Below, in pieces: positions 1,262 through 28,893 of a stretch of DNA of 64,000 nt (its first letter is position 1; every line of letters begins with the position of its first letter). This stretch comes from Actinomycetota bacterium (GTDB taxonomy: Bacteria; Actinomycetota; Thermoleophilia; RBG-16-64-13): the NCBI GenBank assembly GCA_036795215.1, contig DAIRFC010000004.1:4822-68821 (forward strand), in the 5' to 3' direction. The translations under genes were made by a program, and so were the position numbers. Below the pieces are notes generated by a model. That model ran no database searches. It was not told where the DNA came from and saw only the letters and a list, made by a program, of their open reading frames with translations.

Positions 1262-2362
1262 TCAATCAAACGAACCTTGACAGTCTGGATCAGCCGGCTG
1301 GGGTTGAGTAGTCGGCGTGGGGGTGAGGTCGCCGGTGCGAAGTAGGAGGTTGTGCAGCATCAGGCAGGCCTCCGACCGGCTGGCGGCCTGCGTGAACCTG
1401 TAGTGTGTGCCCGGATACAGGCGGTCCATAAGACCAGCGTAGTATGCCTTGACGCCATTCGCGCGGTGTTCTTCGGTCGAGAAGAGGCCGCGCGGCCCGA
1501 AACGAGGGACGTATGAATCTGGTGCGGCCGGAAGGTCAGCCGCTCGCGCCAGCATGGTTATCAACTGCTCCCTGGTGGTGACGTCGTCGGGGGCGAAGCT
1601 CGTTGGCGTCTTTCCGACGGTGATGAGTCGCGCTGCGCAAACAGCGACATAGTTGTCGGGGTAGAGCGGGTCGGGGTACCCCCCGGTCTGCACATCGGTA
1701 AACGGGCACACGTCGTGCTCCGAAACCGGGTATCCGAGGGTCTTCACTATCAGTTTGGCCAGCTGCTGGCGCGTGAGAGAGGCGTTGGGACGGAAGCTCC
1801 CATCCGGGTAGCCGCTCAGAATGCCGCGAAAGGCCAGGTCGTTTATCTGATTCACATAGGGGTGCGAGGCGGGCACATCACTGAAAGTCGGGCGGTAGGC
1901 GGTGGTCGGAGTCGTGCTGCCCTTAGACGAGAACCAGAGAGAGATGGAGTAGCTCACGGGTATCTCGCAACCAGGTGCGGGTGCCACTTCCACTTGCCAT
2001 CTTCCGCTCTGCTCGACCTTGTGAGTGATATGAGCCGGTTCTCTGCTTGTGCCCAGAGAGTTGCCCCCTGCGTCACCAAAGGGAAGGCCAACCAGGCTTA
2101 CGTATACCTGTGACTCGCCCAGGGGAGTTACCCGGACCTCGATCACGTCACCCCACTGGCAATCGAAACCGTACGCGTGGCCGATCGGCTCGATCGATTC
2201 GGTGACGGAGTAGGGGGGATTCACCAGTGTGGTGGGTGGTGGGCTGAGCGTCGTCGCCTGTCCCTCGGCGGGGGCAAGCAGCAGCACTGCCGCTCCCGCG
2301 AGCAAGGCCAAGGCGAGCAGAATGAAGGTATGCCTGCTTTCGGCCAGTGCCAGTCTCCTCAT
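1262..2362 (-). CDS. secreted S-layer-homology (SLH) domain protein
   Basis: Internal start MRRLALAE.. is followed by a hydrophobic signal peptide. C-terminal SLH-like repeats (FSDVPASHPY..GYPDGSFRP..TRQQLAKLIV; CPFTDV..YPDNYVAVCAA..) are paralogous to three other genes in the window. Confidence 0.7.
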   Translation of the reverse strand: MRRLALAESRHTFILLALALLAGAAVLLLAPAEGQATTLSPPPTTLVNPPYSVTESIEPIGHAYGFDCQWGDVIEVRVTPLGESQVYVSLVGLPFGDAGGNSLGTSREPAHITHKVEQSGRWQVEVAPAPGCEIPVSYSISLWFSSKGSTTPTTAYRPTFSDVPASHPYVNQINDLAFRGILSGYPDGSFRPNASLTRQQLAKLIVKTLGYPVSEHDVCPFTDVQTGGYPDPLYPDNYVAVCAARLITVGKTPTSFAPDDVTTREQLITMLARAADLPAAPDSYVPRFGPRGLFSTEEHRANGVKAYYAGLMDRLYPGTHYRFTQAASRSEACLMLHNLLLRTGDLTPTPTTQPQPADPDCQGSFD

Positions 2363-2465
2363 TTCTGATCTCCCTTCAACATTCGTCGCAGCAGACCAAT
2401 GTACTAAAGACAGAGCTCTCGTGCTTTGGAAGCGGCGCGTGCAGGCAGGTGTGCGTGCATCGAAC

Positions 2466-2876
2466 TCAGCGAGTCGCGCGAGGCCGCTTCGCAGTGTGCG
2501 CCCTGATCCAGCCGGCCAGTGCGTCCTCGTCGAGGTCGCCGGACGCGAGTTCCACGATGGTGGTGACGACCTCGGCTTCGCTCGCGTTGAACGCAAGGCC
2601 ATTGAGCCCCAGGAAGACGGCCATGACCATGAACGCGACACGCTTATTGCCGTCGTTGTAGGGGTGATTTCGGGCGAGGCCGAATCCGTAGGCGGCTGCG
2701 AGTGCCGCCACGTCCACTTGAGGTTCGTAGGTAAAGCGCTGCCGTGGGCGAGCCAGTGCGGATTCGAGCCCATTCTCGTCTCGCAGGCCCGGCATTCCTC
2801 CGTGCGTGAGTAGCATGTCGGTTTGGATGGCGTCCACGACCAATCGGGACACCCAGCGAGGCTCGAGGTCAGACAT
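2466..2876 (-). CDS. doc: Doc (death-on-curing) family toxin, Fic-fold
   Basis: Carries the Fic/Doc motif HPYNDGNKRVAF. The 136-aa size and an upstream partner gene ending 3 nt before its ATG fit a toxin-antitoxin pair. Confidence 0.8.
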   Translation of the reverse strand: MSDLEPRWVSRLVVDAIQTDMLLTHGGMPGLRDENGLESALARPRQRFTYEPQVDVAALAAAYGFGLARNHPYNDGNKRVAFMVMAVFLGLNGLAFNASEAEVVTTIVELASGDLDEDALAGWIRAHTAKRPRATR

Positions 2877-2879
2877 GAC

Positions 2880-3107
2880 CTACTTGGCGAGCTCGCGAAG
2901 CGCGTGGCGGTATGTGCGACCTACCTCCGCGGCGATAGAGAGGGCCTCTTCGGTCTCGGGGTCATATGGCGTGAGGAGTATCCCGCGGTCTGTCTCAATG
3001 GCCATCACGGTGTCGCCGGCAGCGAGCTTCAACCTGTCGGCCATGTCCTTGGGCAGGGTGGCGGCGATGGAGCCACCCGCTTTGCGCAGCTTGACGCCCT
3101 GGGTCAT
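2880..3107 (-). CDS. AbrB/MazE-fold antitoxin of the Phd/Doc pair
   Basis: SpoVT/AbrB-like swapped-hairpin signature VKLRKAGGSIAATLPKDMADRLKLAAGDTV. Internal ATG 3107 is preceded by GGAGG. The gene lies immediately upstream of doc. Confidence 0.7.
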   Translation of the reverse strand: MTQGVKLRKAGGSIAATLPKDMADRLKLAAGDTVMAIETDRGILLTPYDPETEEALSIAAEVGRTYRHALRELAK

Positions 3108-3269
3108 CTCTTCCTCCGGCGGTATGGGTTCATGACCAGGGTAGCACATATGTGCTACCTCGCCCAAGAGCTATGATAGGCCAACTTCTCGGGAACCGGC
3201 AATTCACTGGTTGTCGCCAGGGATGTCGCCAGAAGGATCGCAGCGAGACAGATCTCCATTCCGACCTCG

Positions 3270-3842
3270 ATGGACAAGGAGACCGTAGAGATCGACGCCG
3301 ACATGCCGGGAATCGTCTTACCGGCTTGCTACACGAGAATGCCCAGGATCGTCGAAGGCTTTGTCGGCAGAGTGACTCATCTGGAATCCAACTACATCCA
3401 CGATGCTGATGCCCTGCCTCCCTTTCTGCAGAAAAGGATGCTCCGCAGATGGGAGAAGAGAGCGGACAGGATCGCCGACTACGTGCTCAGCCATAGGACT
3501 GGTCGGATGGAGACATGCGGTGGTCTGATGGCGCTCCTGTTCTCGAGAGGTATCGAGAAACGGTACCTTCAAGGCGCGCTGAGTCCGGATATCGACGAGA
3601 ACCTCTGGACAGACGACAAGTGCAACGGATGCGCCATCTGCGCAGAGGTCTGCCCGGTCGGCAACATCGCGATGGTTGGCGATAGACCCAGCTGGCAGCA
3701 CCGGTGCGAGAAGTGCCTGAGGTGTATCCAATGGTGCCCAAAGGAGGCGATACAGTTCAAGGATGCGACGCTGGGACGAAAGAGGTATCGGCATCCGGAC
3801 GTGAAGCTGTCGGAGATGCTGAGGCGGGGTGCTGGTTCCTAG
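3270..3842 (+). CDS. 4Fe-4S dicluster domain protein (EFR1-like ferredoxin C-terminal region; possibly N-terminally truncated)
   Basis: Two CxxCxxC..CP motifs at the C-terminus (CNGCAICAEVCP, CEKCLRCIQWCP). No flavodoxin-like N-domain is present. The stop codon abuts a copy of the tRNA-Ser 3' end. Confidence 0.5.
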   Translation: MDKETVEIDADMPGIVLPACYTRMPRIVEGFVGRVTHLESNYIHDADALPPFLQKRMLRRWEKRADRIADYVLSHRTGRMETCGGLMALLFSRGIEKRYLQGALSPDIDENLWTDDKCNGCAICAEVCPVGNIAMVGDRPSWQHRCEKCLRCIQWCPKEAIQFKDATLGRKRYRHPDVKLSEMLRRGAGS

Positions 3843-4020
3843 CCGAGGGGGGGATTCGCGCATCTTGCTTCGCAAGCTGCCGTCCTCGCCTCGCCGTCCG
3901 GCTCGGCTCAGACCGCTCGCTGCTCGACAGTCCAAAGGGACTGTCTCGCTGACGCTCGCGCCCTCGCGGGTTCGGAATCCCCCCCAGACCCTGCTGGCAG
4001 CCATTTCTTGGTTTCATGCG

Positions 4021-4109
4021 GGAAACCCTACGGAGAGGGGGGGATTCGAACCCCCGGGACCGCTTGCGCGGCCCAACGGTTTTCGAGACCGCCGCATTCA
4101 ACCGCTCTG
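4021..4109 (-). tRNA. tRNA-Ser (anticodon CGA), class II with long variable arm
   Basis: Reverse complement folds as GGAGAGG-TG-GCAG..AGCGGTTGAA..anticodon loop CTCGAAA..long variable arm..GGTTCGAATCCCCCC-CCTCTCC-G. No encoded CCA. Confidence 0.85.
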
Positions 4110-4513
4110 CCACCTCTCCCTATCGACTCGGTTCAGAATGAAGCCGCGGCCGCCGAGTCTCCGCATTGAGCGGCACGATGCTACGTCCTCAGTCGCGTCC
4201 GTAGCGCTGCTACGCCCGTTCCTTGCGTCCTTGCCTCGCGCTTGCTCACTGCACCCTGGCGGCGAACCTTCATTCTAACCCGAGTCCTCTGGCGCGTCTG
4301 GCGAGGTCTTCCCGGGGAGCCCCGCGCAGCGCAACGAGGATTGTAGCCGATGGGGCCCTGCCCTGACAGGCACTGCTCCCGGGCGGCCCGTGTCGATAAG
4401 CGGATTCTCATCGCTCGCTCATGCTCGCCTCATGACACGCGGGTAGATTGCCCTCAGTGGAACGGTTCTGACGGTATGCGCCTGAGGGCGCAGGCTTTGA
4501 AAGGAGTAGCGAA

Positions 4514-5095: not shown

Positions 5096-5208
5096 CGGTG
5101 CGCGGATAGCTCCGGGTAGCAGATCGAATGGAACGGACGGGCGCTCCCAGCGGGAGCGCCCGTCCGGCGTTCGTCGTCAGACGGGCGTTCATCGTCAGAC
5201 GGGCGGCG

Positions 5209-6066: not shown

Positions 6067-6124
6067 CTCGCCTCCCTCTCGCGATGTGTCACAGCGCTGT
6101 CGCGGCGGATTGTAGCCGAGTCAG

Positions 6125-6364
6125 GTGCGCGCCGGCATGGCGTACGCCCGCGTTCAGCTGACGGCCCAGAGTATGGGGCTCGCGGTGCAGCCGCTCAGCC
6201 AGATCCTCGAGGAATATCCGGAGATGGCGTCGCTCTACACCCAGGTCCACGCCGAGTACGCGCCGAACGGCGAGACCATCCAGATGCTGGTGCGGGTCGG
6301 CAGGCCCACCCAGGAGGTGCCGCGCAGCATGCGCCGCGATGCGGCCGACCTGCTCATGGAGTAG
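6125..6364 (+). pseudogene. C-terminal fragment of a nitroreductase-family (Acg-like) gene
   Basis: Only about 79 codons, resembling the C-terminal tail of large nitroreductase-family proteins (..TIQMLVRVGRPTQEVP..). No upstream N-terminal coding region; the space upstream is occupied by the divergent SDR gene. Confidence 0.4.
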
Positions 6365-6375
6365 GGCCGCCGCCG

Positions 6376-6972
6376 TCAGGCTCGTGGGAAACAGCGCGCG
6401 GTCATCTCGCCGGCTTCCCTCAGCCACTCGGCTCTCTGCTCGGGGGTGCTGGTGATGATGACTCCGAACATCCGGCGGTAGAACTCATTGACGCCGCACG
6501 AGACGAACATGTTGTTCTTCCAGAGCGATTCCAAGGGATCGCCGTAGAGGCTCGTCTCTCGCTCCACCGGCGTGTTCGACGTGTTCAGCACGAGGACGGC
6601 CCGCGCCTTGAGGAGCCCGATGAGCTCCCCGTCGCCCTGGTCGCCTTCGGCGAAGGTGTAGGCCACTCCCGGACGCAACACCCGATCCACCCAGCCCTTG
6701 AGGATGGCAGGCGGCTGTCCCCACCAATTGGGATGCACGATCACGATGCCCTCGGCGGCGGCGATCTCGGCGCAGTGCTTCCGGACGATCCGCGGCAGCT
6801 CCACATCCCTCGGGATCTCCCGAGCGGGCAGGATGGCGGGGAACCTCTCCTTGTAGAGGTCGTGGAACGCCACCTCGTGCCCGTTGGCTTGGAGCGCGTC
6901 CACCGCGGCGGCCGCGAGTGCATGATTGAAGCTCCCCGAATCGGGATGCGCAAGAATGACCGTTGCTCTCAT
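6376..6972 (-). CDS. flavodoxin-like fold NAD(P)H-dependent oxidoreductase (NQO1/Flavodoxin_2 family)
   Basis: MRATVILAHPDSGSFNHALA.. N-terminus and the overall pattern are typical of NAD(P)H dehydrogenase (quinone) / flavodoxin-like proteins. Confidence 0.75.
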   Translation of the reverse strand: MRATVILAHPDSGSFNHALAAAAVDALQANGHEVAFHDLYKERFPAILPAREIPRDVELPRIVRKHCAEIAAAEGIVIVHPNWWGQPPAILKGWVDRVLRPGVAYTFAEGDQGDGELIGLLKARAVLVLNTSNTPVERETSLYGDPLESLWKNNMFVSCGVNEFYRRMFGVIITSTPEQRAEWLREAGEMTARCFPRA

Positions 6973-7659: not shown

Positions 7660-7864
7660 CCTGCGCGCTGCGTGTCCGGCCCACCCATGAGGGCCACTCT
7701 CCACCCAAAGTCCCTGTGAGCCGGCCTCCGGTCACCGTTATGCTCGCGTAGCTTCGCGGGCGACCAACCCCCGCCGGTCTTGACCTACATGGCCGCCGGC
7801 AGAAGACACAGTGAGGGTGTATCATGGAACCAATATGGTTGCAAAATGGTTTGGAGGCGGTAGT

Positions 7865-8108
7865 GCCGACCACACTCACACTCAAGAACATCCCCGATGA
7901 CGTGTACGAGCGACTGAAGGCGGCCGCGGCAGCACACCGCCGCAGTCTGAACAGTGAGGCCATCGTCTGCCTGGAAACTGTGCTGAAGCCGGTCAGGGTG
8001 AGCCCAGGTGAGCGCCTCGAACGCGTCAGACGGTTGCGCGCTGAACTGGAAGGGGTGGAGTTCCTCGCCGACGACATCGATGCCATGAAGCGTTGGGGGC
8101 GGCCGTGA
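7865..8108 (+). CDS. vapB: VapB/FitA-like ribbon-helix-helix antitoxin
   Basis: Start moved to GTG 7865 (GGAGG 5 nt upstream), giving an N-terminus (M)PTTLTLKNIPDDVYERLKAAAAAHRRSLNSEAI typical of RHH antitoxins. Overlaps the vapC start by GTGA. Confidence 0.75.
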
Positions 8109-8491
8109 TCGTGGTCGACACGAATGTGCTCGCGTACCTGTTTCTACCAAGCCAACACACACCGGCCGCCGAGTCGTTGCTCGAGCAGGACCCGGAGTGG
8201 GCAGCGCCAGTGCTGTGGCGGAGCGAATTCCGCAACGTGCTGGCTGGGGGCGTTCGGCGGGGCGACCTCGCTCTGGAGGAGGCCTGTCGTCTGCAGGCTG
8301 AGGCCGAGGACCACATGAGCGGCAACGAGTACGACGTGGATTCGATGCGGGTGCTGACGCTCGCGCACGAGAGCGGGTGCTCCGCGTATGACTGCGAGTA
8401 CGTTGCCTTGGCCATCACCCTGGGTACCAAGTTGGTCACGTGCGACAGGCAGGTGCTGAGCGCTTTTCCGGGGGTCGCGGTCGCACTCTAG
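8105..8491 (+). CDS. vapC: PIN-domain VapC toxin
   Basis: VIVVDTNVLAY.. N-terminus with conserved acidic residues (D..E..D..D) of the PIN fold. 4-bp GTGA overlap with vapB. Confidence 0.8.
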   Translation: MIVVDTNVLAYLFLPSQHTPAAESLLEQDPEWAAPVLWRSEFRNVLAGGVRRGDLALEEACRLQAEAEDHMSGNEYDVDSMRVLTLAHESGCSAYDCEYVALAITLGTKLVTCDRQVLSAFPGVAVAL

Positions 8492-9095: not shown

Positions 9096-10073
9096 TCACG
9101 CGATGACGATCTCCTCGCCGGCCTTCAACGTCCGGTAGCGCTCGCCGAGCGCTTCCTTGAAGACTCCAAGGCTCCAGTCGCAGCTGTCGTGGGCCGAGAG
9201 CGCCACCAGACTTAGATCGAGACCGGCCAGGAGCGCCGCGGCCGCGCGGGCCTCTTCCCGAGTGATGCGCTGCCAGGGCAGCTTCCCATTGCCGATGATG
9301 TTCTGCCCGCCTTTTCCCACCCGCGAGCCCGTGACGGGGAAGTGCAGCCCACCCACCACTGCGTAGAGCGGAAGACCTGTGACCGCGCGGGCCCGCTCGA
9401 TCATGCGCGATAAGGATGGATGTCCGCAACCCACGATCAGCACCACGCCCTTGCCGGCCACATTGACGAGCAGGTTCTGCTCGAACACGGGGCCACTCAG
9501 CCAGATGGCCCGCATCAGCGGGCCGCTGCTGGCTACGCCCGGCGCCAGCCGGCGCGGCGACTTGATGACCGTCACCCGCCCCGTGGGATAGGCAAGCGGC
9601 GGCGGCAGGAAGATCCGGACACCCTCTAGATCGACGGGCCGCGCCGAGAGGGTGAATGTCTTGTTGGCCTGGGCCTCGCGGCCGCCCACGTGGTCCAGAT
9701 GGCCATGGGAGATGAAGAGCTCATCTATCTCGTCCAGCGACACCCCCAGGATCTTCATGTTGCGCAGGAGGGGTGAGGGGTGCTCGTTCCGCACGTTCCA
9801 GCCGACGTCGAAGAGCAGTCTCTCGTCGTCGAAGGTCACCAGATAGGAGACGCCCGCCTCCGTCGCCAGACCTTCTACGGCGGAGTAGTACTCCACCAAG
9901 GGGAGGATGGAGAGGCGGGTGACGGCGCCAAGACCGGTGATGGCCGAGGGTCGCTCCGTCGCCCACAGCCGGTCGGCCTGTCGTTTGTCGCGCCAGAACT
10001 CAAGGACGGTGTTCGGCCGGGCCATCCCCGAAGCGGCCCAGTAAGCGGCGTATTTCTTCTCGGTGAGCGACAT
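9096..10073 (-). CDS. MBL-fold metallo-hydrolase
   Basis: HxHxDH motif (SHGHLDHVGG). GAGGTG RBS 5 nt before ATG 10073. Confidence 0.8.
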   Translation of the reverse strand: MSLTEKKYAAYWAASGMARPNTVLEFWRDKRQADRLWATERPSAITGLGAVTRLSILPLVEYYSAVEGLATEAGVSYLVTFDDERLLFDVGWNVRNEHPSPLLRNMKILGVSLDEIDELFISHGHLDHVGGREAQANKTFTLSARPVDLEGVRIFLPPPLAYPTGRVTVIKSPRRLAPGVASSGPLMRAIWLSGPVFEQNLLVNVAGKGVVLIVGCGHPSLSRMIERARAVTGLPLYAVVGGLHFPVTGSRVGKGGQNIIGNGKLPWQRITREEARAAAALLAGLDLSLVALSAHDSCDWSLGVFKEALGERYRTLKAGEEIVIA

Positions 10074-11095: not shown

Positions 11096-11728
11096 ATGGC
11101 TCATATCGATTTCACCGACAACTACGAAGACCTCTCGACCGAAAGCGGATACCAGTTCAAGTTCATGTGCGAGCGATGCGGCAACGGCTACATGTCCAGC
11201 TGGAAGGCCAGCAAGAGCGGTATGGCCACCGGGTTGCTCAGGGGCGCCGGTAGTCTGCTGGGGGGTTTCCTGGGGAGCGCCGCCGACAGCGCCGATGACC
11301 TGCGAGATTTGGTGCAAGGCCCCGCCCACGATCGGGCTCTACAGGAGGCCGTTGCTGAGATACGGCCGCTCTTCGTGCAGTGCAAGCGATGTGGTCAATG
11401 GGTGTGTCGCGAGGTCTGCTGGAACGCCGAGAGAGGGCTCTGCACGGAGTGTGCGCCCATCACGCAACGGGAGATCGGCTCCATGCAGGCCCACTACACC
11501 GTAGAGCAGGCCGGGGAGAAGCTCCGTGAGCAGGATCTCACGGCCGGTCTCAACCTGACTGCCAAGGCGGTCGTCATTTGTCCCGCATGCGGAACGGAGA
11601 ACGATGGGGGCAAGTTCTGCCAGGAGTGCGGCGCATCCCTGCTGCCAACGATCGAATGTCCGCGTTGCGGGGCCCAGCTCAAAGCGCGCGCGAAATTCTG
11701 TCCAGAGTGCGGGAACAAGCTGGTCTGA
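11096..11728 (+). CDS. multi-zinc-ribbon domain protein (hypothetical)
   Basis: Four CxxC-containing modules, including two classical zinc ribbons at the C-terminus (CPACG..CQECG; CPRCG..CPECG). No enzymatic domain recognised. Confidence 0.65.
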   Translation: MAHIDFTDNYEDLSTESGYQFKFMCERCGNGYMSSWKASKSGMATGLLRGAGSLLGGFLGSAADSADDLRDLVQGPAHDRALQEAVAEIRPLFVQCKRCGQWVCREVCWNAERGLCTECAPITQREIGSMQAHYTVEQAGEKLREQDLTAGLNLTAKAVVICPACGTENDGGKFCQECGASLLPTIECPRCGAQLKARAKFCPECGNKLV

Positions 11729-12930
11729 TGACCCGAAAAGCCCGCTACAGTCTCGAGGGACGTTCCGGTCAGGCGGAGTGGTCGTTCGATGGGTCGTATC
11801 TCGGCCTGGTACCCGACGCCGGGCCTCCCATGTCGTTCTCGGTCCCTGAGTTCACGGGTATCGCGGGCGACGACTACACTATCGCGCTCACTGTGGCAGG
11901 GGCAGCGCCGGAAGGCAAGCTGGTGCTCTCTCACCTCGGGGCGGACGGACCGACGCTCCTCGACGGGCTGCGGCGGGCCTGGTTACCCGCCCGCGCACAG
12001 GTCCTCCGCCTGAGCGGATCCGGGGAGGGTAGGCCCTTCTCGGGGCAGGTGGCAGGGCTCGAGGGGCGGCCGCCCGAACCCTTTCGGGGCCTACTTTTTG
12101 AGGAAGTGCTCGTGGTGGCCCGCGATGGGTTCGATCTGGATCCTCTCTTTCTGGCCCTCTTCGGGAGCGTGGAACACGACGAGTCCACCTATACCGTCAG
12201 GGTGCGGCAGTGGCCGGGTGAGCAGGTGGTGTTCTCGAAGATGGCGGGGCAGACCGACGAGTTTGCGAGATGGTTGCAGACCAATAGAGCAGAGTTGGCC
12301 GAGGAGTCGGCGGCGATCTTGGCCGCGGGGGCGCCGACGCTGCCGTTGGGTCCGAGAGGCATGCTCGCGGGGATGTGGCTGCCGGGACGGCTTATGGAGC
12401 TCGAGGCCATGGAGGCCGTGTGCCCGGGCGTCATCGAAGCCTTCCGGGGTGCGTGGCTTGCGAGCCTGCCCCGGCATGATGAAGGCGAACACCTGCTGGG
12501 GTGGGCGGCCGGCGGTTCGACGTGGGTGGGTTGCACACGCGGGTCGGGCGGCGGCGCACAGGATGGGGCCACCGCGGGGACCGCTCCGGGCGCGGGCGCG
12601 GAAGGTCACCTATGGCTTCTCTGCGGCAAGAACGGCGTGTGGTTCTTGGAAGCGTTGTCCATCGAAGACCGGGCCACGTACTGCTTCACCGGCGGTGAAG
12701 AGGTGCCGGCGCTGGTTTCACGGCTCCTTTGCGCGCCTCAGTTCTCTCGCGAGGCCCTGTACAGCCCGCTTGCCGAGCTGACCGGGGAGAGCGCCGATCT
12801 CGCGATCGCGGCTCAGGCCCTGGACTTCTTGGTGGAACTACGGCGCCGCTTCAAAGACCGGGTGATCCATCAGACCACAGAAGGCTGGAAACGAGACGTC
12901 GGAAGACTCGGCGACGACGCGCGAATTTGA
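11728..12930 (+). CDS. hypothetical protein (400 aa), translationally coupled to zinc-ribbon gene
   Basis: ATG 11728 overlaps the upstream stop (TGATG). No recognisable domain. Coding-like codon usage over the whole length. Followed by a bidirectional terminator. Confidence 0.55.
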   Translation: MTRKARYSLEGRSGQAEWSFDGSYLGLVPDAGPPMSFSVPEFTGIAGDDYTIALTVAGAAPEGKLVLSHLGADGPTLLDGLRRAWLPARAQVLRLSGSGEGRPFSGQVAGLEGRPPEPFRGLLFEEVLVVARDGFDLDPLFLALFGSVEHDESTYTVRVRQWPGEQVVFSKMAGQTDEFARWLQTNRAELAEESAAILAAGAPTLPLGPRGMLAGMWLPGRLMELEAMEAVCPGVIEAFRGAWLASLPRHDEGEHLLGWAAGGSTWVGCTRGSGGGAQDGATAGTAPGAGAEGHLWLLCGKNGVWFLEALSIEDRATYCFTGGEEVPALVSRLLCAPQFSREALYSPLAELTGESADLAIAAQALDFLVELRRRFKDRVIHQTTEGWKRDVGRLGDDARI

Positions 12931-16764: not shown

Positions 16765-17547
16765 TCAGCCTCCGCAACCCGCCGTCGTGGTGGTCGACTC
16801 CGTGGGGGGCGGTGGGTCGGTGACCGTCGTGGCGGCGGGCTGGGTGGTGGTCGTCTCGGGCCAGAGCAAGACCATGAGGTTGTAGAGCACCCGGGCGACT
16901 TCGCCACGGGTCATGCTCATGGTGGGGTCGAGCGTGTCGAGATCCAGCTCCTGGAGGAGCGAGTTGTACTCAGCTCTGGCCGCGTTGGCTCCGTGAGTGA
17001 CATCGTTGCCCCAGATGCCCGTCGCTCGCCAATCATCCGGTGGAGTGGCCAGGAGACCCGGCTGCAGATCGTCGGCTGCTCTCACAACCATACTGATCAC
17101 CTGATGGCGTGTGATGTTGCCGTAGGGGTCGAAGGTGGTCTGCGTCTTCCCGGTCGTTATGCCCTTGGCTGCGCATACCGCCACATAGTTGTCTGGGTAG
17201 AGCGTCTCGGGTCCGCCCTTGAGCACGTCGGCGAAGGGGCACTCGTCGGCTTCGGAGACCTGGTATCCACCGGCCAGCACGATCATCTTGGCGAACTGTT
17301 GCCGCGTCACCTCGCCGTCGGGACCGAATTCACCGGTCACATAGCCGTCGACGATCTGATGGAGCGCAAGGTAGCTTATGGCGTCGTGGTGCGGGTGAGT
17401 ATCCGGGACGTCGGGAAAACTGGGTGCAACGGCCAACGTGAACGGAGCCAGCGCCGCGACGAGTGCCAGCGCCAGGAGCACGGCGCATATCGCCCCCGTC
17501 AGGCGCCGGTGGGCTCTGCCCAACCTCTTGCGGCCGCTGAGTTTCAT
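16765..17547 (-). CDS. secreted SLH-domain protein
   Basis: Signal peptide MKLSGRKRLG..ALALVAALA followed by SLH repeats (FPDVPDTHPHH..; ECPFADV..YPDNYVAVCAAKGITTGKT..). Lies directly downstream of the kelch lipoprotein gene. Confidence 0.7.
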   Translation of the reverse strand: MKLSGRKRLGRAHRRLTGAICAVLLALALVAALAPFTLAVAPSFPDVPDTHPHHDAISYLALHQIVDGYVTGEFGPDGEVTRQQFAKMIVLAGGYQVSEADECPFADVLKGGPETLYPDNYVAVCAAKGITTGKTQTTFDPYGNITRHQVISMVVRAADDLQPGLLATPPDDWRATGIWGNDVTHGANAARAEYNSLLQELDLDTLDPTMSMTRGEVARVLYNLMVLLWPETTTTQPAATTVTDPPPPTESTTTTAGCGG

Positions 17548-17554: not shown

Positions 17555-18634
17555 TCAACCTTCTCCATTCCAGCTCCATGTGTCGTTGAGATATTCGACC
17601 TCATTCCAACCTCCAAAAACCAGCGCCGTGTTGTTAGTGGAGTCGTACACCATCGAGTGGCCGTTGCGCGCGGGCGGTGTGGCGCCGGCCGGCTTCACGA
17701 GGGTCCATGTGTTGGTGTCGGGCTCGTACGATCGCAGATCGCCCAAGAAGCTGTCGCGCGTGTTGCCTCCGAAGAGGAGGAGGTCGCCGCTGCGGGAGTC
17801 GTACACCATGCGGTGGCCCGCCCGTGGCTGCGGCACGTCGCCGATGGTATCGAGGCTGGCCCAGGAGTCGGCAGTGGGGTCGAATACCCAAGTGCTGCTG
17901 AGGAACACGCGGCTGTCCCAGCCACCCGACACGAAGACCTTGCCGGAGGCTTCGTCGTAGACCATGGCGTGGCCATAGCGCTCCGTGGGGGTTTCTCCCG
18001 CGGTCTCGAGCAGAGCCCAGGTGTTCTGGGCGCTATCGTAGGCCCACGTGTCGTTCAGGAAGCTGTCTTGGTCTCTGCCTCCGAAGAGGATCACCATCCC
18101 GTGAGCGGAGTCATAGACCATGTTCTGTCCCACACGTTCGGAGGGAAGCGCGCCGCCCGGCCTGAGCTCCACCCAGGTGTTCGTCTCCCGGTCATACTCC
18201 CAGGTGTCGCTCAGGAAAGCCTCGGTGCTGGTGCCACCGTAGAGGACAGCCTTTCCTCTTGCCGAGTCGTAGACCATCGAGGCGGCGCAACGTTCGGGGG
18301 GCACGCTGCCCGTGGGCTGCAGTTCCATCCAGGTGTTGGTTGCCGCATCGTACTCCCAGGTGTCGTCGAAGAAGCTCTTGCTGTCGGTGCCCCCGAAGAG
18401 GAGCACCTTGCCGGTCTTCGAGTCGTACACCATGGCTTGGCCTGCGCGGGGCTCGGGCACATCACCCGTGGGAGCGAGATCAGTCCAGCCGGGCGATGAT
18501 CCTTCGCCTGCCGCGGGCCCGGGGGCTGCGGTCACGACGGTCGTGGTGGTGGCCGTCTCCGAGTCGCATGCTGCGCCGCTGAGGGCAAGGGCGCAACATA
18601 TAGCCAGAAGAACGGCGAAACGCAGCTTGTTCAC
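17555..18634 (-). CDS. kelch-repeat (beta-propeller) lipoprotein
   Basis: Lipobox ..LALSGAAC. Six kelch-type repeats (..PRAGQAMVYD..W.YD..). GTG start. Confidence 0.7.
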   Translation of the reverse strand: MNKLRFAVLLAICCALALSGAACDSETATTTTVVTAAPGPAAGEGSSPGWTDLAPTGDVPEPRAGQAMVYDSKTGKVLLFGGTDSKSFFDDTWEYDAATNTWMELQPTGSVPPERCAASMVYDSARGKAVLYGGTSTEAFLSDTWEYDRETNTWVELRPGGALPSERVGQNMVYDSAHGMVILFGGRDQDSFLNDTWAYDSAQNTWALLETAGETPTERYGHAMVYDEASGKVFVSGGWDSRVFLSSTWVFDPTADSWASLDTIGDVPQPRAGHRMVYDSRSGDLLLFGGNTRDSFLGDLRSYEPDTNTWTLVKPAGATPPARNGHSMVYDSTNNTALVFGGWNEVEYLNDTWSWNGEG

Positions 18635-18664
18635 GACGCGCTCTCTTTCCCCTAGGGAGAAACG

Positions 18665-18695
18665 CCGAGCCCCGCATGTTGCGGGGCTCTTTTCC
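18665..18695. terminator. GC-rich hairpin with T-run, terminator-like
   Basis: GAGCCCCGCATGTTGCGGGGCTC followed by TTTTCC. Lies between the kelch gene start and the tRNA-Arg 3' end. Strand assignment is ambiguous. Confidence 0.4.
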
Positions 18696-18697
18696 AG

Positions 18698-18771
18698 CGC
18701 GCCTGACGCGACTCGAACGCGTGACCTTTGGTTTCGTAGACCAACGCTCTATCCAACTGAGCTACAGGCGC
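18698..18771 (-). tRNA. tRNA-Arg (anticodon ACG)
   Basis: Reverse complement GCGCCTG-TA-GCTCAGTTGGATAGAGC-GTTGGTCTACGAAACCAAA(ACG loop)-GGTCACGCGTTCGAGTCGCGTC-CAGGCGC-G. Confidence 0.85.
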
Positions 18772-18808
18772 ATATTTCAGTCCGCCGACCCAGTCCCGGC
18801 AGCCCGAG

Positions 18809-18899
18809 CGGAGAAGGAGGGATTCGAACCCTCGGAAGGAGCATTCACTCCTTCACTCGCTTAGCAGGCGAGCGCCTTCAGCCTCTCGGCCACTTCTCC
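18809..18899 (-). tRNA. tRNA-Ser (anticodon GCT), class II
   Basis: Reverse complement GGAGAAG-TG-GCCGAGAGGCTGAAGGC..CTGCTAA loop..long variable arm..GGTTCGAATCCCTC-CTTCTCC-G. Confidence 0.85.
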
Positions 18900-19750: not shown

Positions 19751-20899
19751 ATGAAACCTAGCACCCGCCCCGCCAACCCGTGTTTCTCCTCCGGCCCCAC
19801 CGCCAAGCGGCCTGGATGGAGCCCCGGGGTCTTGGAGGGCGCCTTGGTGGGCCGGTCGCACCGCTCGAAGGCCGGGCGGGCTCGTATCCAAGAGGTGATC
19901 GACCGGTCTCGTGCGCTGCTGGGAGTGCCCGACGACTACTACCTCGGTATCGTGCCTGCCTCCGACACCGGGGCCATGGAGATGGCCATGTGGTCGCTGC
20001 TGGGGGCACGCGGGGTGGACGCCCTTGCTTGGGAGAGTTTCGGTCAAGGCTGGGTGACCGACATCACCAAGCAGCTCAAGCTTTCCGACGCGCGCGTGCT
20101 CGCTACCGATTACGGCAAGCTCCCCGATCTGGCGCAGGTCGACTGGGACCGTGACGTGGTCTTCGCCTGGAACGGCACTACGTCTGGAGTCCGGGTCCCC
20201 GGCGCCGACTGGATCGCCGACGACCGCCGCGGTCTTGCCCTCTGTGACGCCACCTCCGCGGTCTTTGCCATGGATGTGCCCATCGCCAAGCTGGATGTGG
20301 TCACCTACTCCTGGCAGAAGGTGCTGGGTGGCGAGGCCCAACACGGCGTGCTGATACTCAGCCCCCGGGCGGTGGAGCGCCTGGAGACCTACACGCCTGC
20401 GTGGCCACTGCCCAAGATCTTTCGCATGACGAAGAGCGGCAAGTTCATGGAGGCCATCTTCCACGCCGACACCATCAACACACCGTCGATGCTGGTGGTC
20501 GAGGACGGCCTGGACGGCCTCAAATGGGCCGAGGGTCTGGGCGGCCTACCCGGACTGATACAGCGGAGCGAGGCGAACCTCGCGGCCGTGGCAGCCTGGG
20601 TGGAGCGCACTCCCTGGGTGGACTTCTTGGCGGAGGACCCCGCGACGCGGTCGTGCACGTCCATTTGCCTCAAGATCATCGACCCTTGGTTCGCCGAGCT
20701 CAGCGCCGAAGAACGGCCGGCCGCCGCGAAGAAGATAGCCTCGCTACTCGAGGGCGAGGGAGTGGCCTACGACGTCGCGCCCTATCGCGAAGCCCCTCCC
20801 GGCATCCGCATCTGGGGCGGAGCGACCGTGGAACGCTCCGATCTCGAAGCGCTCTTCCCGTGGCTCGACTGGGCCTACGCGGAGGTCAAGGGCAGCTAG
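19751..20899 (+). CDS. serC: phosphoserine aminotransferase (actinobacterial-type SerC)
   Basis: PLP class-V aminotransferase fold with ..FSSGPTAK.. N-terminus and the [10 protein letters not shown] lysine region. GGAAGGA RBS. Confidence 0.8.
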
Positions 20900-23879: not shown

Positions 23880-26045
23880 CTAGAGCCACTCCTTGAGCCG
23901 CCGCCGGATGTCGTCGGTGGTGACGGGGCCTTGGGCCCCTGGCGTGCCGGGCCCGTCCGGAGGGCCCGTTGGTCCACCGATGAGGTCGGCCGCGGTGCAG
24001 AGATCCATGGTGTGCCGCACCCGGGCAGAGACGAAACGGGTGGGCTGCGAGTAGCCGTGGACGTCGCTGAAACTGCGCGGGTGGGTGTAGTAGCGCAACG
24101 GGTGGCAGACGTACAGCCAGTCTTTGGCGCGGGTGAGGGCCACGTAGAACAGACGGCGTTCTTCTTCGATCTCTTCGAGCCTGCCGGTGGCCATGTCCGA
24201 CGGGATGTTGCCGTCGGAAGCGTGGATGACGAAGACCACGTCCCACTCGAGGCCTTTGGCGGAATGCATGGTGGAGAGGATGAGGAAGTCTTCGTCGAGC
24301 AGTGGCGGTCCGGCAAGGTCTTCGGTGTATGCGGGGGGATCGAGGGCGATCTCGGCCAGGAACCGGGCGCGGTCGGGAAAGCGCCCGGCCATCCACTCGA
24401 GTTGCTCGAGATCCATGAGTCGTGCGCGTGAATTGTCGTAGAGGCGTTCAAGGAGGGGCGCGTAGAAGAGGCGGACGCGTTCGATCTGTGAGGCTAGGTC
24501 GCCCGGTTCACGCTCGGTAAGACCGGTCATGAGAGACACCAAGCCGGCCCAAGCTTCTGCCGAGGCAGGGGACGGGGCGGGGCAGCCGGTCCAGGCTGCG
24601 AAGCCGGCGGAGGCCCCGGAGGGATCTGCCTCCGGCGTGCCGCGCCCGGTGTTGCCTGTCAGGCGGTCCATGAGGCCCCGGGCCTTCTTGGGCCCGACGC
24701 CTGGGAGCAACATGAGGAGCCGCGTGCCGGCCATCAGATCGCGGGGGTTCTCCGCCAGGCGCAGGAACGCCATGAGGTCTTTTACATGGGCTGTCTCCAC
24801 GAAGCGCAGCCCTCCATACTTGCGGAAAGGGATGTTGCGTCGCGCGAGCTCCAGCTCCAATGTCAGACTGTGATGAGAGGCCCGGAAGAGCACGGCTTGG
24901 CGCCGCAGGGCCAGGCCGGACTCGCGGTGTTCGAGCACCTGATGGATGACGAACTCCGTCTGCTCGTCTTCGTCGTCACAGGTGACGAGCTGCGGCCTGG
25001 CGCCATCCGGCCGCTGCGACCACAGGTTCTTGGCGTGTCGCTCGGCGGCTTCCGAGATGACCCCGTTGGTGGTATCGAGGATGGGCTGGGTGCTGCGGTA
25101 GTTCTGCTCCAAGGTGACGACGCGGGTTTCCGGGAACTGTTGTGGGAAGTCGAGGATGTTGCGGACCGTCGCCGCCCGGAACGAGTAGATCGCTTGGGCA
25201 TCGTCGCCGACGGCGGTCAGGCGGATGCCACCCGGGCAGAGCATCTGGAGGATCTCGGCCTGCAGGCGGTTGGTGTCTTGGTACTCATCGACGAGAACGC
25301 AGTCGAACCGGCTTCTGATCGAGCGGGCCGCGGCGGCGTCGGTCAGCAGACCGTGCCAGAAGAGCAGCAGGTCGTCGTAGTCGAGCACGTTGTGGTCCGC
25401 CTTGTGATCCACATAGGCGGCGAAGAGACGGCGCAGGTCGTCGATGTCGTCTTTGCACCAGGGGAAGTCGGCCTCGACAGTCTGGTCGACAGGCTCGCGG
25501 GCGTTGACGCAGCGGCTGTAGATGTCCATACAGGTGCCTTTGAGTGGAAAGCGGCGGTCGCTCTTGGCTAGGCCCAGCTCGGTGCGGAGGACTCCCAGAA
25601 GATCTTCGGCGTCTCCGCGGTCGAGGATGGTGAACGAGGGCTCCAGGCCGATGGAGCGGCCATGGAGGCGCAGGAGTCGAGTGCCCACGGCGTGGAATGT
25701 GCCGCCCCAGACCCTGCCCGATGCCGGCGTCGTTGCGGTGTCTGTGCGACGCGATTCGGCCTCCAGACGCCTGAGTATGCCGTCCACGCGGCGGAGCATC
25801 TCGCTTGCCGCCCTGCGCGTGAAGGTGAGCAGCAGGATGCGGCCCGGGTCGGTGCCGGTGGCGATCTTGTACGCGACGCGGTGCGCGAGTGTGGCAGTCT
25901 TACCCGTGCCGGCTCCGGCGACGATGAGGAGCGGCTCACTACCGTGCAGCACCGCCTCACGTTGCTGCTGGTTGAGCTCGGCCAGGATCGCCCCGATGGC
26001 GGTCTCGTCGGTGCCCTTTCCCTTCCCGGTGGGGGTGCTGTCCAC
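23880..26045 (-). CDS. UvrD/PcrA/Rep-family ATP-dependent DNA helicase
   Basis: Walker A AGAGTGKT, TFH and QDTN motifs, and a UvrD C-terminal domain. GTG start. Confidence 0.85.
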   Translation of the reverse strand: MDSTPTGKGKGTDETAIGAILAELNQQQREAVLHGSEPLLIVAGAGTGKTATLAHRVAYKIATGTDPGRILLLTFTRRAASEMLRRVDGILRRLEAESRRTDTATTPASGRVWGGTFHAVGTRLLRLHGRSIGLEPSFTILDRGDAEDLLGVLRTELGLAKSDRRFPLKGTCMDIYSRCVNAREPVDQTVEADFPWCKDDIDDLRRLFAAYVDHKADHNVLDYDDLLLFWHGLLTDAAAARSIRSRFDCVLVDEYQDTNRLQAEILQMLCPGGIRLTAVGDDAQAIYSFRAATVRNILDFPQQFPETRVVTLEQNYRSTQPILDTTNGVISEAAERHAKNLWSQRPDGARPQLVTCDDEDEQTEFVIHQVLEHRESGLALRRQAVLFRASHHSLTLELELARRNIPFRKYGGLRFVETAHVKDLMAFLRLAENPRDLMAGTRLLMLLPGVGPKKARGLMDRLTGNTGRGTPEADPSGASAGFAAWTGCPAPSPASAEAWAGLVSLMTGLTEREPGDLASQIERVRLFYAPLLERLYDNSRARLMDLEQLEWMAGRFPDRARFLAEIALDPPAYTEDLAGPPLLDEDFLILSTMHSAKGLEWDVVFVIHASDGNIPSDMATGRLEEIEEERRLFYVALTRAKDWLYVCHPLRYYTHPRSFSDVHGYSQPTRFVSARVRHTMDLCTAADLIGGPTGPPDGPGTPGAQGPVTTDDIRRRLKEWL

Positions 26046-26150
26046 TGGGGCCGCGGTCTCCCTCGCTATCTGGCGCTGATCAGTCGCACCAAGGATACAG
26101 GCCGCGCCGGACAGAAGGAGGCTCCAGTGGCGGGATGCGCATGCGCCGGA

Positions 26151-26178
26151 TTGACCCCGGGTATGGCGGGCCTATAAT
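26151..26178 (+). promoter_or_regulatory. near-consensus sigma-70 promoter (TTGACC-16 nt-TATAAT) for the PPC-SLH gene
   Basis: TTGACC at 26151-26156 and TATAAT at 26173-26178 with a 16-nt spacer, about 50 nt upstream of ATG 26227. Confidence 0.55.
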
Positions 26179-26226
26179 CAAGGCGGGGCTTACCTCACGA
26201 AGCGGGCTCGACCATGGAGGTGCGCG

Positions 26227-27333
26227 ATGAACATCCGGTCCGGCATGAGCATCAGAAGCGTGGCCGCGCGCAGAGTGGGGCCGGTCACGGTCGTGGTCGG
26301 GATAGTCATGGCGCTGATCGTTTGCGCCATGATGCTTCTGGGGGTCTCATCCGCCCAGGCCCTGGTCCCGCTCCTCAACCCTGACGAGCCGAACGACAGT
26401 TTTCCTGCCGCGACGCAGCTCCAGAACGGGTTGGAGATCTGGGGCGCTATCCCCGAGGCAGGCGACGAAGACTTCTTCTATCTGGATATCCCGAGCCGGA
26501 GCCGGGTCACCGTGGAGTTCAACACTCAGGGTGTGCCCAGGGAGTGCGGGCTGGCCTTCATGGCCAAAGGCGGCGATGTGATCGCCGACCTCGCCTGGGA
26601 GAAGCGCTATGACGACGACGGGAGCTTCCTCGCCGACGGGATCGTCGGACCCGGACGGCTCTTCGCTATGGTCTCAGCGGGCAGCGGGCAGGCCGGTGTA
26701 GAGGTCTATACGATCGAAGTGACATACGAAGCCGCGGGAACTACCGCCTCCTTCCCCGATGTGCCGGTAGGATCGCCATACTACGAGGCCGTGATAGGTC
26801 TGGCGGGCGAGGAGGTGGTCTCCGGATACAAGGACGGCCGGTTCGGCCCCAGCGATTTCGTGACCCGCCAGCAGTTCGCCAAGATGATCGTGCGGGCGGT
26901 GGGCTACCCGGTCTTCACCAGCGACGTGTGCCCGTTCACCGATGTCTCCAAGAGCTACCCCGGCCACTACGTGGACCCCAACGATCCTCTCTACCCTGAT
27001 CACTACATCGCCGTCGCAGCCGAGCATCACATCACGGTAGGTTTGGATCCCACCACCACCACGTTTGGACCGTACCGGAACATCACGATGGCTCAGGTCG
27101 TCACCATGGTGGTCCGCACGGGTATCGACCTCGGCCTGTGGGACTCTCCTCCCCACGCGTTCGAGCCCCCGTTCGAGGACTTCGGGGAGCCCCATTACCC
27201 TTACGCGCGCATGGGCGCGGCGCACGGCCTCTTCAACGGCTACCCGGGGCCGTGGGGCTGGTTCGCACCGGCGACCAGAGGCCAATGCGCCTTCTTCATC
27301 TGGAAGCTCATGGGCGCCTACAACGTTGACTGA
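26227..27333 (+). CDS. secreted PPC (pre-peptidase C-terminal)-like domain + SLH domain protein
   Basis: Signal peptide. PPC-like beta-sandwich (..DSFPAATQL..GDEDFFYLDI..RVTVEF). SLH repeats (FPDVPVGSPYYEAV..; CPFTDV..YPDHYIAVAAEHHITVG..). Confidence 0.7.
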   Translation: MNIRSGMSIRSVAARRVGPVTVVVGIVMALIVCAMMLLGVSSAQALVPLLNPDEPNDSFPAATQLQNGLEIWGAIPEAGDEDFFYLDIPSRSRVTVEFNTQGVPRECGLAFMAKGGDVIADLAWEKRYDDDGSFLADGIVGPGRLFAMVSAGSGQAGVEVYTIEVTYEAAGTTASFPDVPVGSPYYEAVIGLAGEEVVSGYKDGRFGPSDFVTRQQFAKMIVRAVGYPVFTSDVCPFTDVSKSYPGHYVDPNDPLYPDHYIAVAAEHHITVGLDPTTTTFGPYRNITMAQVVTMVVRTGIDLGLWDSPPHAFEPPFEDFGEPHYPYARMGAAHGLFNGYPGPWGWFAPATRGQCAFFIWKLMGAYNVD

Positions 27334-27351
27334 GGCCGTTGGTCCCGTCGT

Positions 27352-28893
27352 TTATTCGTAGGTGATGTCGTACGTGTTGTCGTGCAGGGCGTTTGAGCCG
27401 ATGATGGGGTACGAATCGGCGCCCACGTAGATGCCCCAGTGGTTGTCATAGCACTCGTTATCGTAGACGGCGCCGTCCGATTGGTCGGCAAAGTAGATGC
27501 CGGCGTCACCGTTGGAGCTGCATTCGTTGCCGATGAGCTCGCCGTACGAGTATCCGAACAGGGCGATCCCGTCAGCCCCGTTGTCTGCCAGCGTGCAGTC
27601 CTCGATGGTGACCTGGGCGGCATCGGCGACTGCGATACCATCGTTGCCGTTGGAATCGCAGGTGCAGCTCATGATGGTCCCGGTCGATTCATCCCAGAAA
27701 CATATACCGCTTTGTACGTTCTCCGAACATACGCTGTTGGCTATCTGCAGATCCGATGCTTCTTCGACGTCGATGCCGTGCAGGCCGTTCTGTGCGAACA
27801 CGCTGTCGATCACCTCGCCGAAGGAGTATCCGTAGAGGTATAGACCGGCTCCTTGCAAGTCATTCTGCCGCGAGCCCCCCGTCACATAGCAGCGTCGCAG
27901 ACCGAGATCGGCGTCGCAGGCCACGATAACGTTGGACGGACCGCTTGTGACGGTGCTCACGAACCGGATGTCTTCTGCGTAGAAGGCGCATTGGTAGACA
28001 TCTAGCACGTCGCCCGCGAACTGTATCGTCGTGCTGTTCGGCCCCTGCATGGCGTAGCCGATGAGCGCCAGATCGTAGTCGACCATGAGCGTGCTTGTGA
28101 GAGTGAAGGTACCGGCGCCCAGATAGATGGTCGCACCCGGGGCGACCGCGGCGACGGCTGCCTCGAGGGTGGGATAGTCGCCGCTGCCGTCGGGATAGAT
28201 CCAGACTTCATCGGACGGCTGCACGGGCGCTCCCTCCAGCAGGTCGAGCAGGTTCCAGAGTATCTGGGCGACCTCCCCGCGCGTGGCGTTGGCGGTGACG
28301 TTCCAGCCGAGGCCCATGCCGATGAGGCCATCGAGTAGTCCATTGTATTCGGCTATGCGCAGGTTCTCGCCATGAGGTTCACCGACGTTGTCGAAGACCA
28401 GTGGAGCACCGGGGGAAGGATCCCAGAGCGCCCCCGGGTACAGACTCTCGGCGCCGTGGACTACCATGCTCACAACCTGGTCGCGGCGGATGGAGTCCCA
28501 GGGCGCGAACAGAGTCTGAGTGGCATTGGTGCCGTAGGTGATGCCGTGTTCATAGGCCGCCTGCACGTACTTGTGCGGATAGCCGTTGGCGTCGGGCGAC
28601 CCGAGGTCGGTGAAGCACGTTGCGGTGGAGGGATCCGGGATGATGTCCAGCGTTCCTATGATCATCTTGGCGAACTGGGCGCGTTTCACCGAGTCGTCGA
28701 GGCCGAACCTCCCGTCGCGATACCCGCCGATGACCCCCAGGTACGAAAGAACGTCGATGGCCTTCTTGTATTCGTGCTCGTTCGGGACATCGGGAAAGGC
28801 CGAAGCGGGGTTGCCCATCGCGAGCAGGATGATCACCGTGAGCACGATGGCGCCCAAGACGGCCGGCCGGGCCTTGGCTTTGCGACACGACAT
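27352..28893 (-). CDS. secreted SLH-domain + right-handed parallel beta-helix (PbH1) protein
   Basis: Internal ATG 28893 gives a signal peptide MSCRKAKARPAVLGAIVLTVIILLA. SLH repeats follow, then at least eight GxxGIxxxxxSxxxxNxxC-type beta-helix rungs in the C-terminal half. Confidence 0.7.
   Translation of the reverse strand: MSCRKAKARPAVLGAIVLTVIILLAMGNPASAFPDVPNEHEYKKAIDVLSYLGVIGGYRDGRFGLDDSVKRAQFAKMIIGTLDIIPDPSTATCFTDLGSPDANGYPHKYVQAAYEHGITYGTNATQTLFAPWDSIRRDQVVSMVVHGAESLYPGALWDPSPGAPLVFDNVGEPHGENLRIAEYNGLLDGLIGMGLGWNVTANATRGEVAQILWNLLDLLEGAPVQPSDEVWIYPDGSGDYPTLEAAVAAVAPGATIYLGAGTFTLTSTLMVDYDLALIGYAMQGPNSTTIQFAGDVLDVYQCAFYAEDIRFVSTVTSGPSNVIVACDADLGLRRCYVTGGSRQNDLQGAGLYLYGYSFGEVIDSVFAQNGLHGIDVEEASDLQIANSVCSENVQSGICFWDESTGTIMSCTCDSNGNDGIAVADAAQVTIEDCTLADNGADGIALFGYSYGELIGNECSSNGDAGIYFADQSDGAVYDNECYDNHWGIYVGADSYPIIGSNALHDNTYDITYE

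Follow-up and report, generated by a model that had tools for sequence, protein, structure and literature searches.

Four predicted wall-anchored proteins of a Thermoleophilia-type actinobacterium belong to a large family that joins a triple S-layer homology module to interchangeable cargo

A 64,000-nucleotide stretch of an actinobacterial genome (contig DAIRFC010000004.1 of assembly GCA_036795215.1, positions 4,822 to 68,821; GC ~64%), referred to here as the window, carries four intact genes, designated A to D. These are predicted to encode secreted proteins that combine a common wall-anchoring module of three S-layer homology (SLH) repeats with differing functional domains. A triple SLH anchor with interchangeable cargo is a known device and an ordinary design, and SLH anchoring in Firmicutes is well understood. 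What is new here is that the four genes are members of a large, previously undescribed SLH gene family in uncultured Thermoleophilia (Actinobacteria); a literature search found no publication linking S-layer homology with Thermoleophilia. We consider it likely that all four proteins are Sec-exported, that the triple SLH module anchors them non-covalently to the wall with an anionic, probably pyruvylated, polymer as the ligand, and that the genes are old paralogues.

The initial annotation proposed that the four genes share an SLH block, and this identification was borne out at the level of both sequence and fold. The Pfam SLH family (PF00395; PROSITE PS51272) matched all four proteins with E-values of 1e-11 to 8e-18 (gene A best, at 7.9e-18) and scores of 44.9-64.6 bits (gathering score 20.8). 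When the six-frame translation of the window was screened with a profile of the ~185-residue block, exactly four copies emerged (E 1e-89 to 1e-98), with no further match. The block lies at 1334..1885 on the minus strand in gene A (residues 160-343, E 3e-89), at 16864..17418 on the minus strand in gene B (residues 44-228, E 2e-96), at 26752..27321 on the plus strand in gene C (residues 176-365, E 8e-92) and at 28237..28797 on the minus strand in gene D (residues 33-219, E 4e-98), where the most divergent copy is found. When the four blocks were aligned and compared with Pfam SLH, they proved to be genuine SLH sequence and not another repeat. The description of the block as unusually conserved was overstated, as paralogy is clear but pairwise identity among the four copies is 37-47% over ~180-190 residues.

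Against the PDB, the best sequence match of the block profile was SbsB (E 1e-16), SpaA was also found, and the profile aligned with Sap over positions 1-179 of 185. An AlphaFold2 (AF2) model of gene B, built from a 65-sequence alignment, had a mean predicted local distance difference test score (pLDDT) of 89.8 and contained six helices arranged as three helix-loop-helix units. Foldseek placed this model over ~180 columns on the SLH trimers of Sap (3PYW, E 4e-9, TMt 0.77) and SpaA (TMt 0.80-0.85 for 7SV4, with pyruvylated ManNAc, and others); it also matched 6BT4, and no match below E 0.1 was found other than SLH trimers. As judged from the model, the three tandem repeats are predicted to fold into the three-pronged spindle of SLH domains, even though repeat 3 is too degenerate for Pfam to call. 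The Pfam, profile and AF2/Foldseek results thus agree in identifying the block as a standard triple SLH module.

All four open reading frames (ORFs) were found by ORF listing and translation to be present and intact, without frameshifts and with a high GC content at third codon positions (GC3), which speaks against pseudogenes. Gene A (1262..2362, minus strand, 366 aa) is predicted to encode a signal peptide, an orphan beta-rich N-domain, the triple SLH module and a short Thr/Pro-rich tail, and its start ATG 2362 is preceded by an AAGGGAG ribosome-binding site. A longer ORF at 1262-2773 was rejected as an artefact because a Fic/Doc-family toxin gene (2466-2876, minus strand, Pfam Fic 4e-16) lies directly upstream of gene A and ATG 2362 has its own ribosome-binding site. 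Gene B (16765..17547, minus strand, 260 aa) comprises a putative signal peptide, the triple SLH module and a Thr/Pro-rich tail. An alternative start for gene B, ATG 17568, has a better-placed GGAG and gives 267 aa, as in a Joint Genome Institute (JGI) gene call (P0001), and the choice between 17547 and 17568 is without effect on the mature protein. Gene C (26227..27333, plus strand, 368 aa; ATG 26227 preceded by GGAGG) would encode a signal peptide, a divergent PPC-type beta-sandwich and the triple SLH module. Gene D (27352..28893, minus strand, 513 aa; ATG 28893 preceded by GAGAGG) would encode a signal peptide, the triple SLH module and a right-handed parallel beta-helix. By-eye inspection of the four N-termini found positive charge followed by a hydrophobic stretch and an AxA-like site in each, with a predicted cleavage ASA/FPDVP in gene D; in the AF2 model of gene B, residues 10-33 form a helix. 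The near-consensus promoter proposed ahead of gene C is present as a sigma-70-like TTGACC-16 nt-TATAAT match at 26151..26178 on the plus strand, 48 nt before the start codon; it is a consensus match only, agreeing at 11 of 12 positions, and a consensus scan found it to be the sole such site in 16.5-29.4 kb, with a mean of 2.1 in shuffled sequence.

The four genes are dispersed among housekeeping genes (M24 peptidase, carB, tRNAs, P-type ATPase, UvrD helicase, carboxylesterase). A search for further copies in a scan of one genome per species returned 335 relatives of the SLH block. The best 80 of the 335, from which the host labels were taken, were all in metagenome-assembled genomes (MAGs) labelled Thermoleophilia, Gaiellales, Actinomycetes or 'Actinobacteria bacterium RBG_16_64_13', and carB of the window and one neighbouring gene likewise had their best matches in such Thermoleophilia-type MAGs. 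In the collected loci alone, 28 MAGs accounted for 106 distinct full-length copies; a single MAG had as many as 9, and some copies were in tandem. These results uphold the suggestion of a lineage-specific expansion and date it as old and not local: when the 211 other blocks are ordered by similarity to a window block, its paralogues in the window come 67th to 202nd, and each window block is nearer to blocks of other genomes than to its paralogues in the window. The family is therefore old, and a recent local duplication of the four genes was rejected on the ground that the window paralogues are far from being mutual nearest relatives.

The cargo carried by the relatives was diverse and included matrixin, CARDB, BNR propeller, cytochrome c7, SBP_bac_5, cupredoxin, Amidase_3, YkuD, CAP, LTD and RCC1 domains. 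One recurrent architecture, Amidase_2 followed by Big_3_5, an RGI_lyase-like beta-sheet and the triple SLH module, was seen in proteins of ~740-820 aa in at least five MAGs (loci L018, L019, L020, L027, L033 and L024, with the SLH block ending near 6549 in each); this protein is probably the wall-anchored autolysin of the lineage. In a Thermoleophilia-type MAG (locus L038, 5839-8043, plus strand), a multihaem domain of the cytochrome c7 type is joined to the SLH block, and the product would be a wall-anchored extracellular electron-transfer protein.

In the window, differing passenger domains had been described for the four genes, and this description stood for the most part. The beta-helix of gene D was identified directly and the kelch protein next to gene B is adjacent as described, a PPC-type assignment for gene C was reached through intermediates only, and for the N-domain of gene A no family was found. 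A local jackhmmer comparison with the collected relatives found no passenger in common, and the passenger domains share no homology. The C-domain of gene D (27355..28176, minus strand, residues ~240-513) matched Beta_helix (PF13229; 2.9e-30, 105 bits) and NosD (PF05048; 1.4e-17, 64 bits), both above threshold, as well as Pect-lyase_RHGA_epim (8e-07), and is predicted to be a right-handed parallel beta-helix.

The N-domain of gene C (26374..26736, plus strand, residues ~50-170) was without any Pfam match, even at E-values up to 10. A phmmer search of 1.84 billion representatives returned 433 homologues, many of them tandemly repeated within very large proteins, and PF04151 (PPC) scored above the gathering score in 6 of the 10 homologues that were scanned. 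In one of these relatives (P0150), the PPC match at residues 39-108 is contained in the stretch that aligns with gene C (residues 6-114). The ortholog of gene C (P0123, 364 aa) has an N-domain 57% identical to that of gene C and also carries the SLH module. The PPC-type assignment thus follows from transitive homology through intermediate sequences; a single-sequence AF2 model of gene C (pLDDT 40), too poor to use, was all-beta in this region. The N-domain of gene A (residues ~30-158) similarly had no Pfam match even at E 10, and neither N-domain returned anything in a k-mer-seeded protein search of a collection from which the source assembly of the window is absent. Comparison of the gene A N-domain with the PPC-like family found for gene C gave an hmmsearch E-value of 0.63 and a weak hhalign match, in register, with a probability of 42%, which is no more than suggestive of a PPC relative.

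Gene B is without a passenger domain, as are 36 of 110 family proteins. The kelch beta-propeller gene directly upstream of it (17555..18634, minus strand, 359 aa) encodes a protein with a predicted signal peptide and a possible lipobox (LSGAAC) that matched Pfam kelch families with E-values down to 4e-69 (Kelch_KLHDC2_KLHL20_DRC7, 233 bits). The two genes had been described as co-transcribed; they lie on the same strand with a 7-nt gap between the kelch gene end and ATG 17547, or a 14-nt overlap if ATG 17568 is the start, and judging from this arrangement co-transcription is probable. Just upstream of the pair are tRNA-Arg(ACG) (18697-18771, minus strand) and tRNA-Ser(GCT) (18808-18899, minus strand), with a GC-rich hairpin and T-run (~18650-18690) between these tRNAs and the kelch start.

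This pairing raises the question of whether gene B is a dedicated adaptor that tethers the adjacent kelch lipoprotein to the wall, as a two-part version of an SLH-kelch fusion. Besides the close spacing on one strand, the adaptor explanation is favored by the recurrence of the pair on an independent JGI contig, where P0001 differs from gene B at one residue, and by SLH-kelch fusions in three relatives (P0098, L034 5842-7554 and L008). In these fusions, the SLH block is N-terminal to the kelch domain, which is the reverse of the gene order here. Moreover, the closest relatives of gene B elsewhere bear other passengers or none, with no kelch neighbor in the collected loci, and the frequency of passenger-less proteins in the family indicates that the form of gene B needs no partner. 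The kelch protein also has its own signal peptide and possible lipobox. Since the SLH block is fused to almost any kind of exported domain, a fusion is weak evidence of partnership and a specific kelch partnership is unproven. Due to these factors, we regard a dedicated adaptor role for gene B as unlikely, if still worth keeping in mind.

The residues that could contact a wall ligand were compared across the family, with statistics drawn from 212 non-identical SLH blocks of relatives. The initial annotation had described a repeat-2 signature, (D/E)CPF(T/A)DV...LYPD(N/H)Y...IT.G, as common to the four genes. This held for three of the four copies and failed for gene D, whose block lacks the CPF and LYPDNY motifs and reads TCFTDL ... 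GYPHKYVQAAYEHGITYG instead. SbsB of Geobacillus shows the style 'PFTDV ... YV.A....T.GKT.T.F...ITR' in its repeat 2, with Leu where the family has Cys; because it thereby has the rest of the repeat-2 style, only the Cys and the LYPxxY insert are family-specific features. Gene D has neither feature. The Pro of the insert, (L/F)-Y-P-x-x-(Y/F), occurs in 211 of the 212 blocks.

The Cys of the CPF motif had been called atypical of SLH domains, and it is real: a Cys stands two residues before the repeat-2 FxDV in 77% of the blocks, and the Cys of AVCAA is present in 55%. Both were found in 100 blocks, the first only in 63, the second only in 16 and neither in 33 (odds ratio for co-occurrence 3.3, uncorrected for phylogeny). 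The first Cys is replaced by Ser, Val or Ala and the AVCAA Cys by Ala. An obligate disulfide between the two was rejected on account of this loose co-occurrence and the small-residue replacements, and both sites are more likely to be small buried positions.

In SpaA, the contacts to 4,6-pyruvyl-N-acetylmannosamine (ManNAc) are SLH-Arg43, SLH-Gly29 and SLH-Trp13 (PMC6081394). The equivalent of Arg43 was present in repeats 1, 2 and 3 in 212/212, 207/212 and 207/207 blocks, respectively, and that of Gly29 in 211/212, 211/212 and 186/212 blocks. The conserved SLH Trp that follows FxDV..H is not kept: repeat 1 has H-P-Y (Tyr in 185/212), repeat 2 has (L/F)YPxx(Y/F) and repeat 3 has H-G. This pattern points to a charged pocket under strong purifying selection with an altered stacking platform.

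Taken with the predicted architectures, these observations suggested how the system may work. Each of the four proteins would be exported by Sec in an uncultured Thermoleophilia-type actinobacterium, and the same three-repeat SLH module, presumably folded as a three-pronged spindle like those of Bacillus anthracis Sap and Paenibacillus alvei SpaA, would provide non-covalent anchoring to the cell wall. The grooves between the SLH repeats most likely bind a negatively charged, probably pyruvylated, secondary cell-wall polymer through the Arg of each TR(Q/A/G)(Q/E) motif and the last Gly of each GIIxG-type motif. The displayed cargo would be the variable parts, i.e., the PPC-type beta-sandwich, the parallel beta-helix, the beta-rich domain of gene A, for which no family was found, or a Thr/Pro-rich tail alone, so that the system would work like the SLH-anchored 'S-layer-associated proteins' of B. 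anthracis.

Several features are common to B. anthracis and the family described here. Sap, EA1 and the BSL proteins have a signal peptide and three tandem SLH repeats in a three-pronged spindle, as is predicted for the present proteins, and the module is found at either protein end, joined to unrelated cargo that includes amidases, with many paralogues per genome. The differences are that the host here is a Thermoleophilia-type actinobacterium and not a Firmicute, that the TRAE motif of B. anthracis reads TRQQ, TRAQ and TRGE in the three repeats, and that, unlike Sap, the family has Tyr or Phe for Trp13, the LYPxxY insert and the frequent Cys two residues before FxDV. Additionally, csaB is not adjacent to the SLH genes in the window, unlike in B. 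anthracis, where csaAB adjoins sap and eag. With SpaA and SlhA of P. alvei (PDB 6CWC, 7SV4), the family shares the fold, SLH-Arg43 and the flipping SLH-Gly29, and, as in SpaA, the fourth motif residue varies (e.g., TRAQ). In contrast to SpaA, whose repeat 2 reads TVEE, the family keeps the Arg in all three repeats; it also lacks the stacking Trp, and sequence identity is 16-17%. Geobacillus stearothermophilus SbsB (PDB 4AQ1) has a similar repeat-2 style, 'PFTDV ... YV.A....(V/I)T.GKT.T.F...NITR', with Leu for the Cys and no LYPxxY insert.

The nature of the ligand is the sole point that could lift this finding above the ordinary, and several observations weigh against a CsaB-pyruvylated polymer. 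Pfam scans of called ORFs of at least ~130 aa detected no CsaB-type pyruvyl transferase (PF04230) in the 64-kb window. Nor was a pyruvyl transferase found in 861 kb flanking related SLH genes, which were searched by jackhmmer from E. coli WcaK, by a scan for the GxxNxGD N-terminal motif and with a pyruvyl-transferase profile whose 7 seeds came from plasmids and from E. coli. Thus the check for a csaB-type enzyme proposed in the initial annotation came back negative in the window and in the related loci. The searches of the flanks are weak tests of linkage only; csaB need not be linked to SLH genes, so that its absence there says little. A published survey describes SLH/CsaB in 'a few examples within Actinobacteria' and scored cultured Thermoleophilia, Gaiella and Rubrobacter as without the SLH+CsaB pair; a separate paper counted SLH in 33 actinobacterial species. 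Within the SLH module itself, the stacking SLH-Trp13 gives way to Tyr or Phe in repeats 1 and 2 and has no aromatic counterpart in repeat 3, and repeat 2 carries the family-specific insert L-Y-P-x-x-Y; the binding groove may therefore differ from characterized ones.

These observations leave room for a wall anchor whose ligand is not a CsaB-pyruvylated polymer but another anionic wall glycopolymer or a modified peptidoglycan, the latter as put forward for OmpM of Negativicutes, whose SLH binds polyamines. In that case, the LYPxxY insert and the substitution of Tyr for Trp would be signs of a changed specificity. The failure to find a pyruvyl transferase in the window or beside the 106 related genes, the replacement of Trp13 together with the near-invariance of the insert, the absence of the SLH+CsaB pair from cultured relatives and a preprint noting that cadaverinated peptidoglycan is used instead in Negativicutes are all consistent with such a ligand. 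On the other hand, the Arg and Gly that hold the pyruvate carboxylate in SpaA are near-invariant in all three repeats, the SLH module of SbsB, the best PDB sequence match, binds a pyruvylated polymer, linkage of csaB is not required, and SLH and CsaB are found together in the few Actinobacteria surveyed for both. A ligand of another class appears improbable on this balance, and an anionic, probably pyruvylated, polymer remains the preferred reading.

A bolder version, which we consider doubtful, is that a modified SLH module underlies the entire surface proteome of the lineage and might recognize a non-CsaB ligand, the modifications being the LYPxxY insert, the Tyr in place of the stacking Trp and the frequent Cys, or that the family is a relic of an ancestral SLH tether after outer-membrane loss in Actinobacteria. 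The OmpM/Slp-type tethers of diderm Terrabacteria resemble the proteins studied here in that SLH holds an envelope layer to the wall as part of the same ancient SLH/CsaB system. OmpM, however, has a single SLH per chain, joined to a coiled coil and a beta-barrel porin. Each chain encoded in the window instead carries three SLH repeats without a barrel; no porin domain was found by Pfam or in the gene B model.

It is very improbable that the four proteins are themselves lattice-forming S-layer subunits. Their anchoring module is typical of the S-layer proteins Sap, SbsB and SpaA, but the proteins are small (260-513 aa, as compared with 892 residues for SbsB, a true lattice-forming S-layer protein), and their non-SLH parts are mutually unrelated and consist of ordinary domains of enzyme or adhesin type. 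Paralogues bearing enzymatic cargo number dozens per lineage, a pattern that fits S-layer-associated proteins and not a lattice subunit. The notion that the common block is not SLH or a chance resemblance, or that the genes are decaying pseudogenes, drew no support beyond a third repeat too weak for a Pfam call and has been refuted by Pfam scores 2-3 times the gathering score, full-length fold matches to solved SLH trimers, intact high-GC3 frames and strong purifying selection on key residues across the 212 sequences.

Several other features of the window were observed. Upstream of the Fic/Doc gene, a small ORF at 2880-3167 (minus strand) is a probable antitoxin, and ORFs at 7824-8108 and 8093-8491 (both plus strand) form a second likely toxin-antitoxin pair, the counterparts of which on a JGI contig (L087) are a FitA-like ribbon-helix-helix protein and a PIN protein. 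A tRNA-Ser(CGA) lies at 4031-4119 (minus strand), and Rfam and tRNA scans of the window revealed nothing bearing on the SLH genes. A metallo-beta-lactamase-fold protein is encoded at 9096-10073 (minus strand), whose JGI contig counterpart is also annotated as Anti-Pycsar Apyc1 (Pfam). Two high-GC3 ORFs are without a Pfam family: one at 11578-12930 (plus strand) matches a 400-aa gene, also Pfam-less, on the JGI contig, and one at 19751-20899 (plus strand) has a close homologue in a MAG locus (L031, 681 bits). A membrane protein of the Phage_holin_4_2 family (mycobacterial 4-TMS holin superfamily IV) is encoded at 34830-35408 (minus strand), and its surroundings contain no further phage genes. 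An Fe-S/flavin oxidoreductase cluster at 38141-47814, with Fer4 proteins, two large Pyr_redox_2/Fer4 proteins, a CCG-domain protein and a DsrE-like protein, is reminiscent of electron-transfer modules of the heterodisulfide-reductase type and hints at an anaerobic lifestyle. In the region 55145-63906, a URO-D-like (methyltransferase-type) gene precedes a complete ABC transporter of the Opp/Dpp type. The SBP_bac_5 binding protein of this transporter (62086-63906) bears no SLH anchor; its N-terminal region is Thr-rich and of low complexity. A relative in the SLH family (P0057) fuses SLH to an SBP_bac_5-like domain.

The family described here indicates that SLH is the dominant surface-display device of the whole uncultured Thermoleophilia lineage, with wall hydrolases, proteases, nutrient-binding proteins and redox proteins among its cargo. 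It provides a means of predicting the exposed proteome and the envelope type of organisms not yet brought into culture, and the SLH block itself is a compact, well-folding anchor with which to probe whether pyruvylated wall polymers exist in Thermoleophilia. The accepted view of SLH domains is unchanged unless csaB proves absent from these genomes, in which case the modified groove would indicate a new specificity and, if another wall ligand is indeed bound, a second ligand class for triple-SLH anchors.

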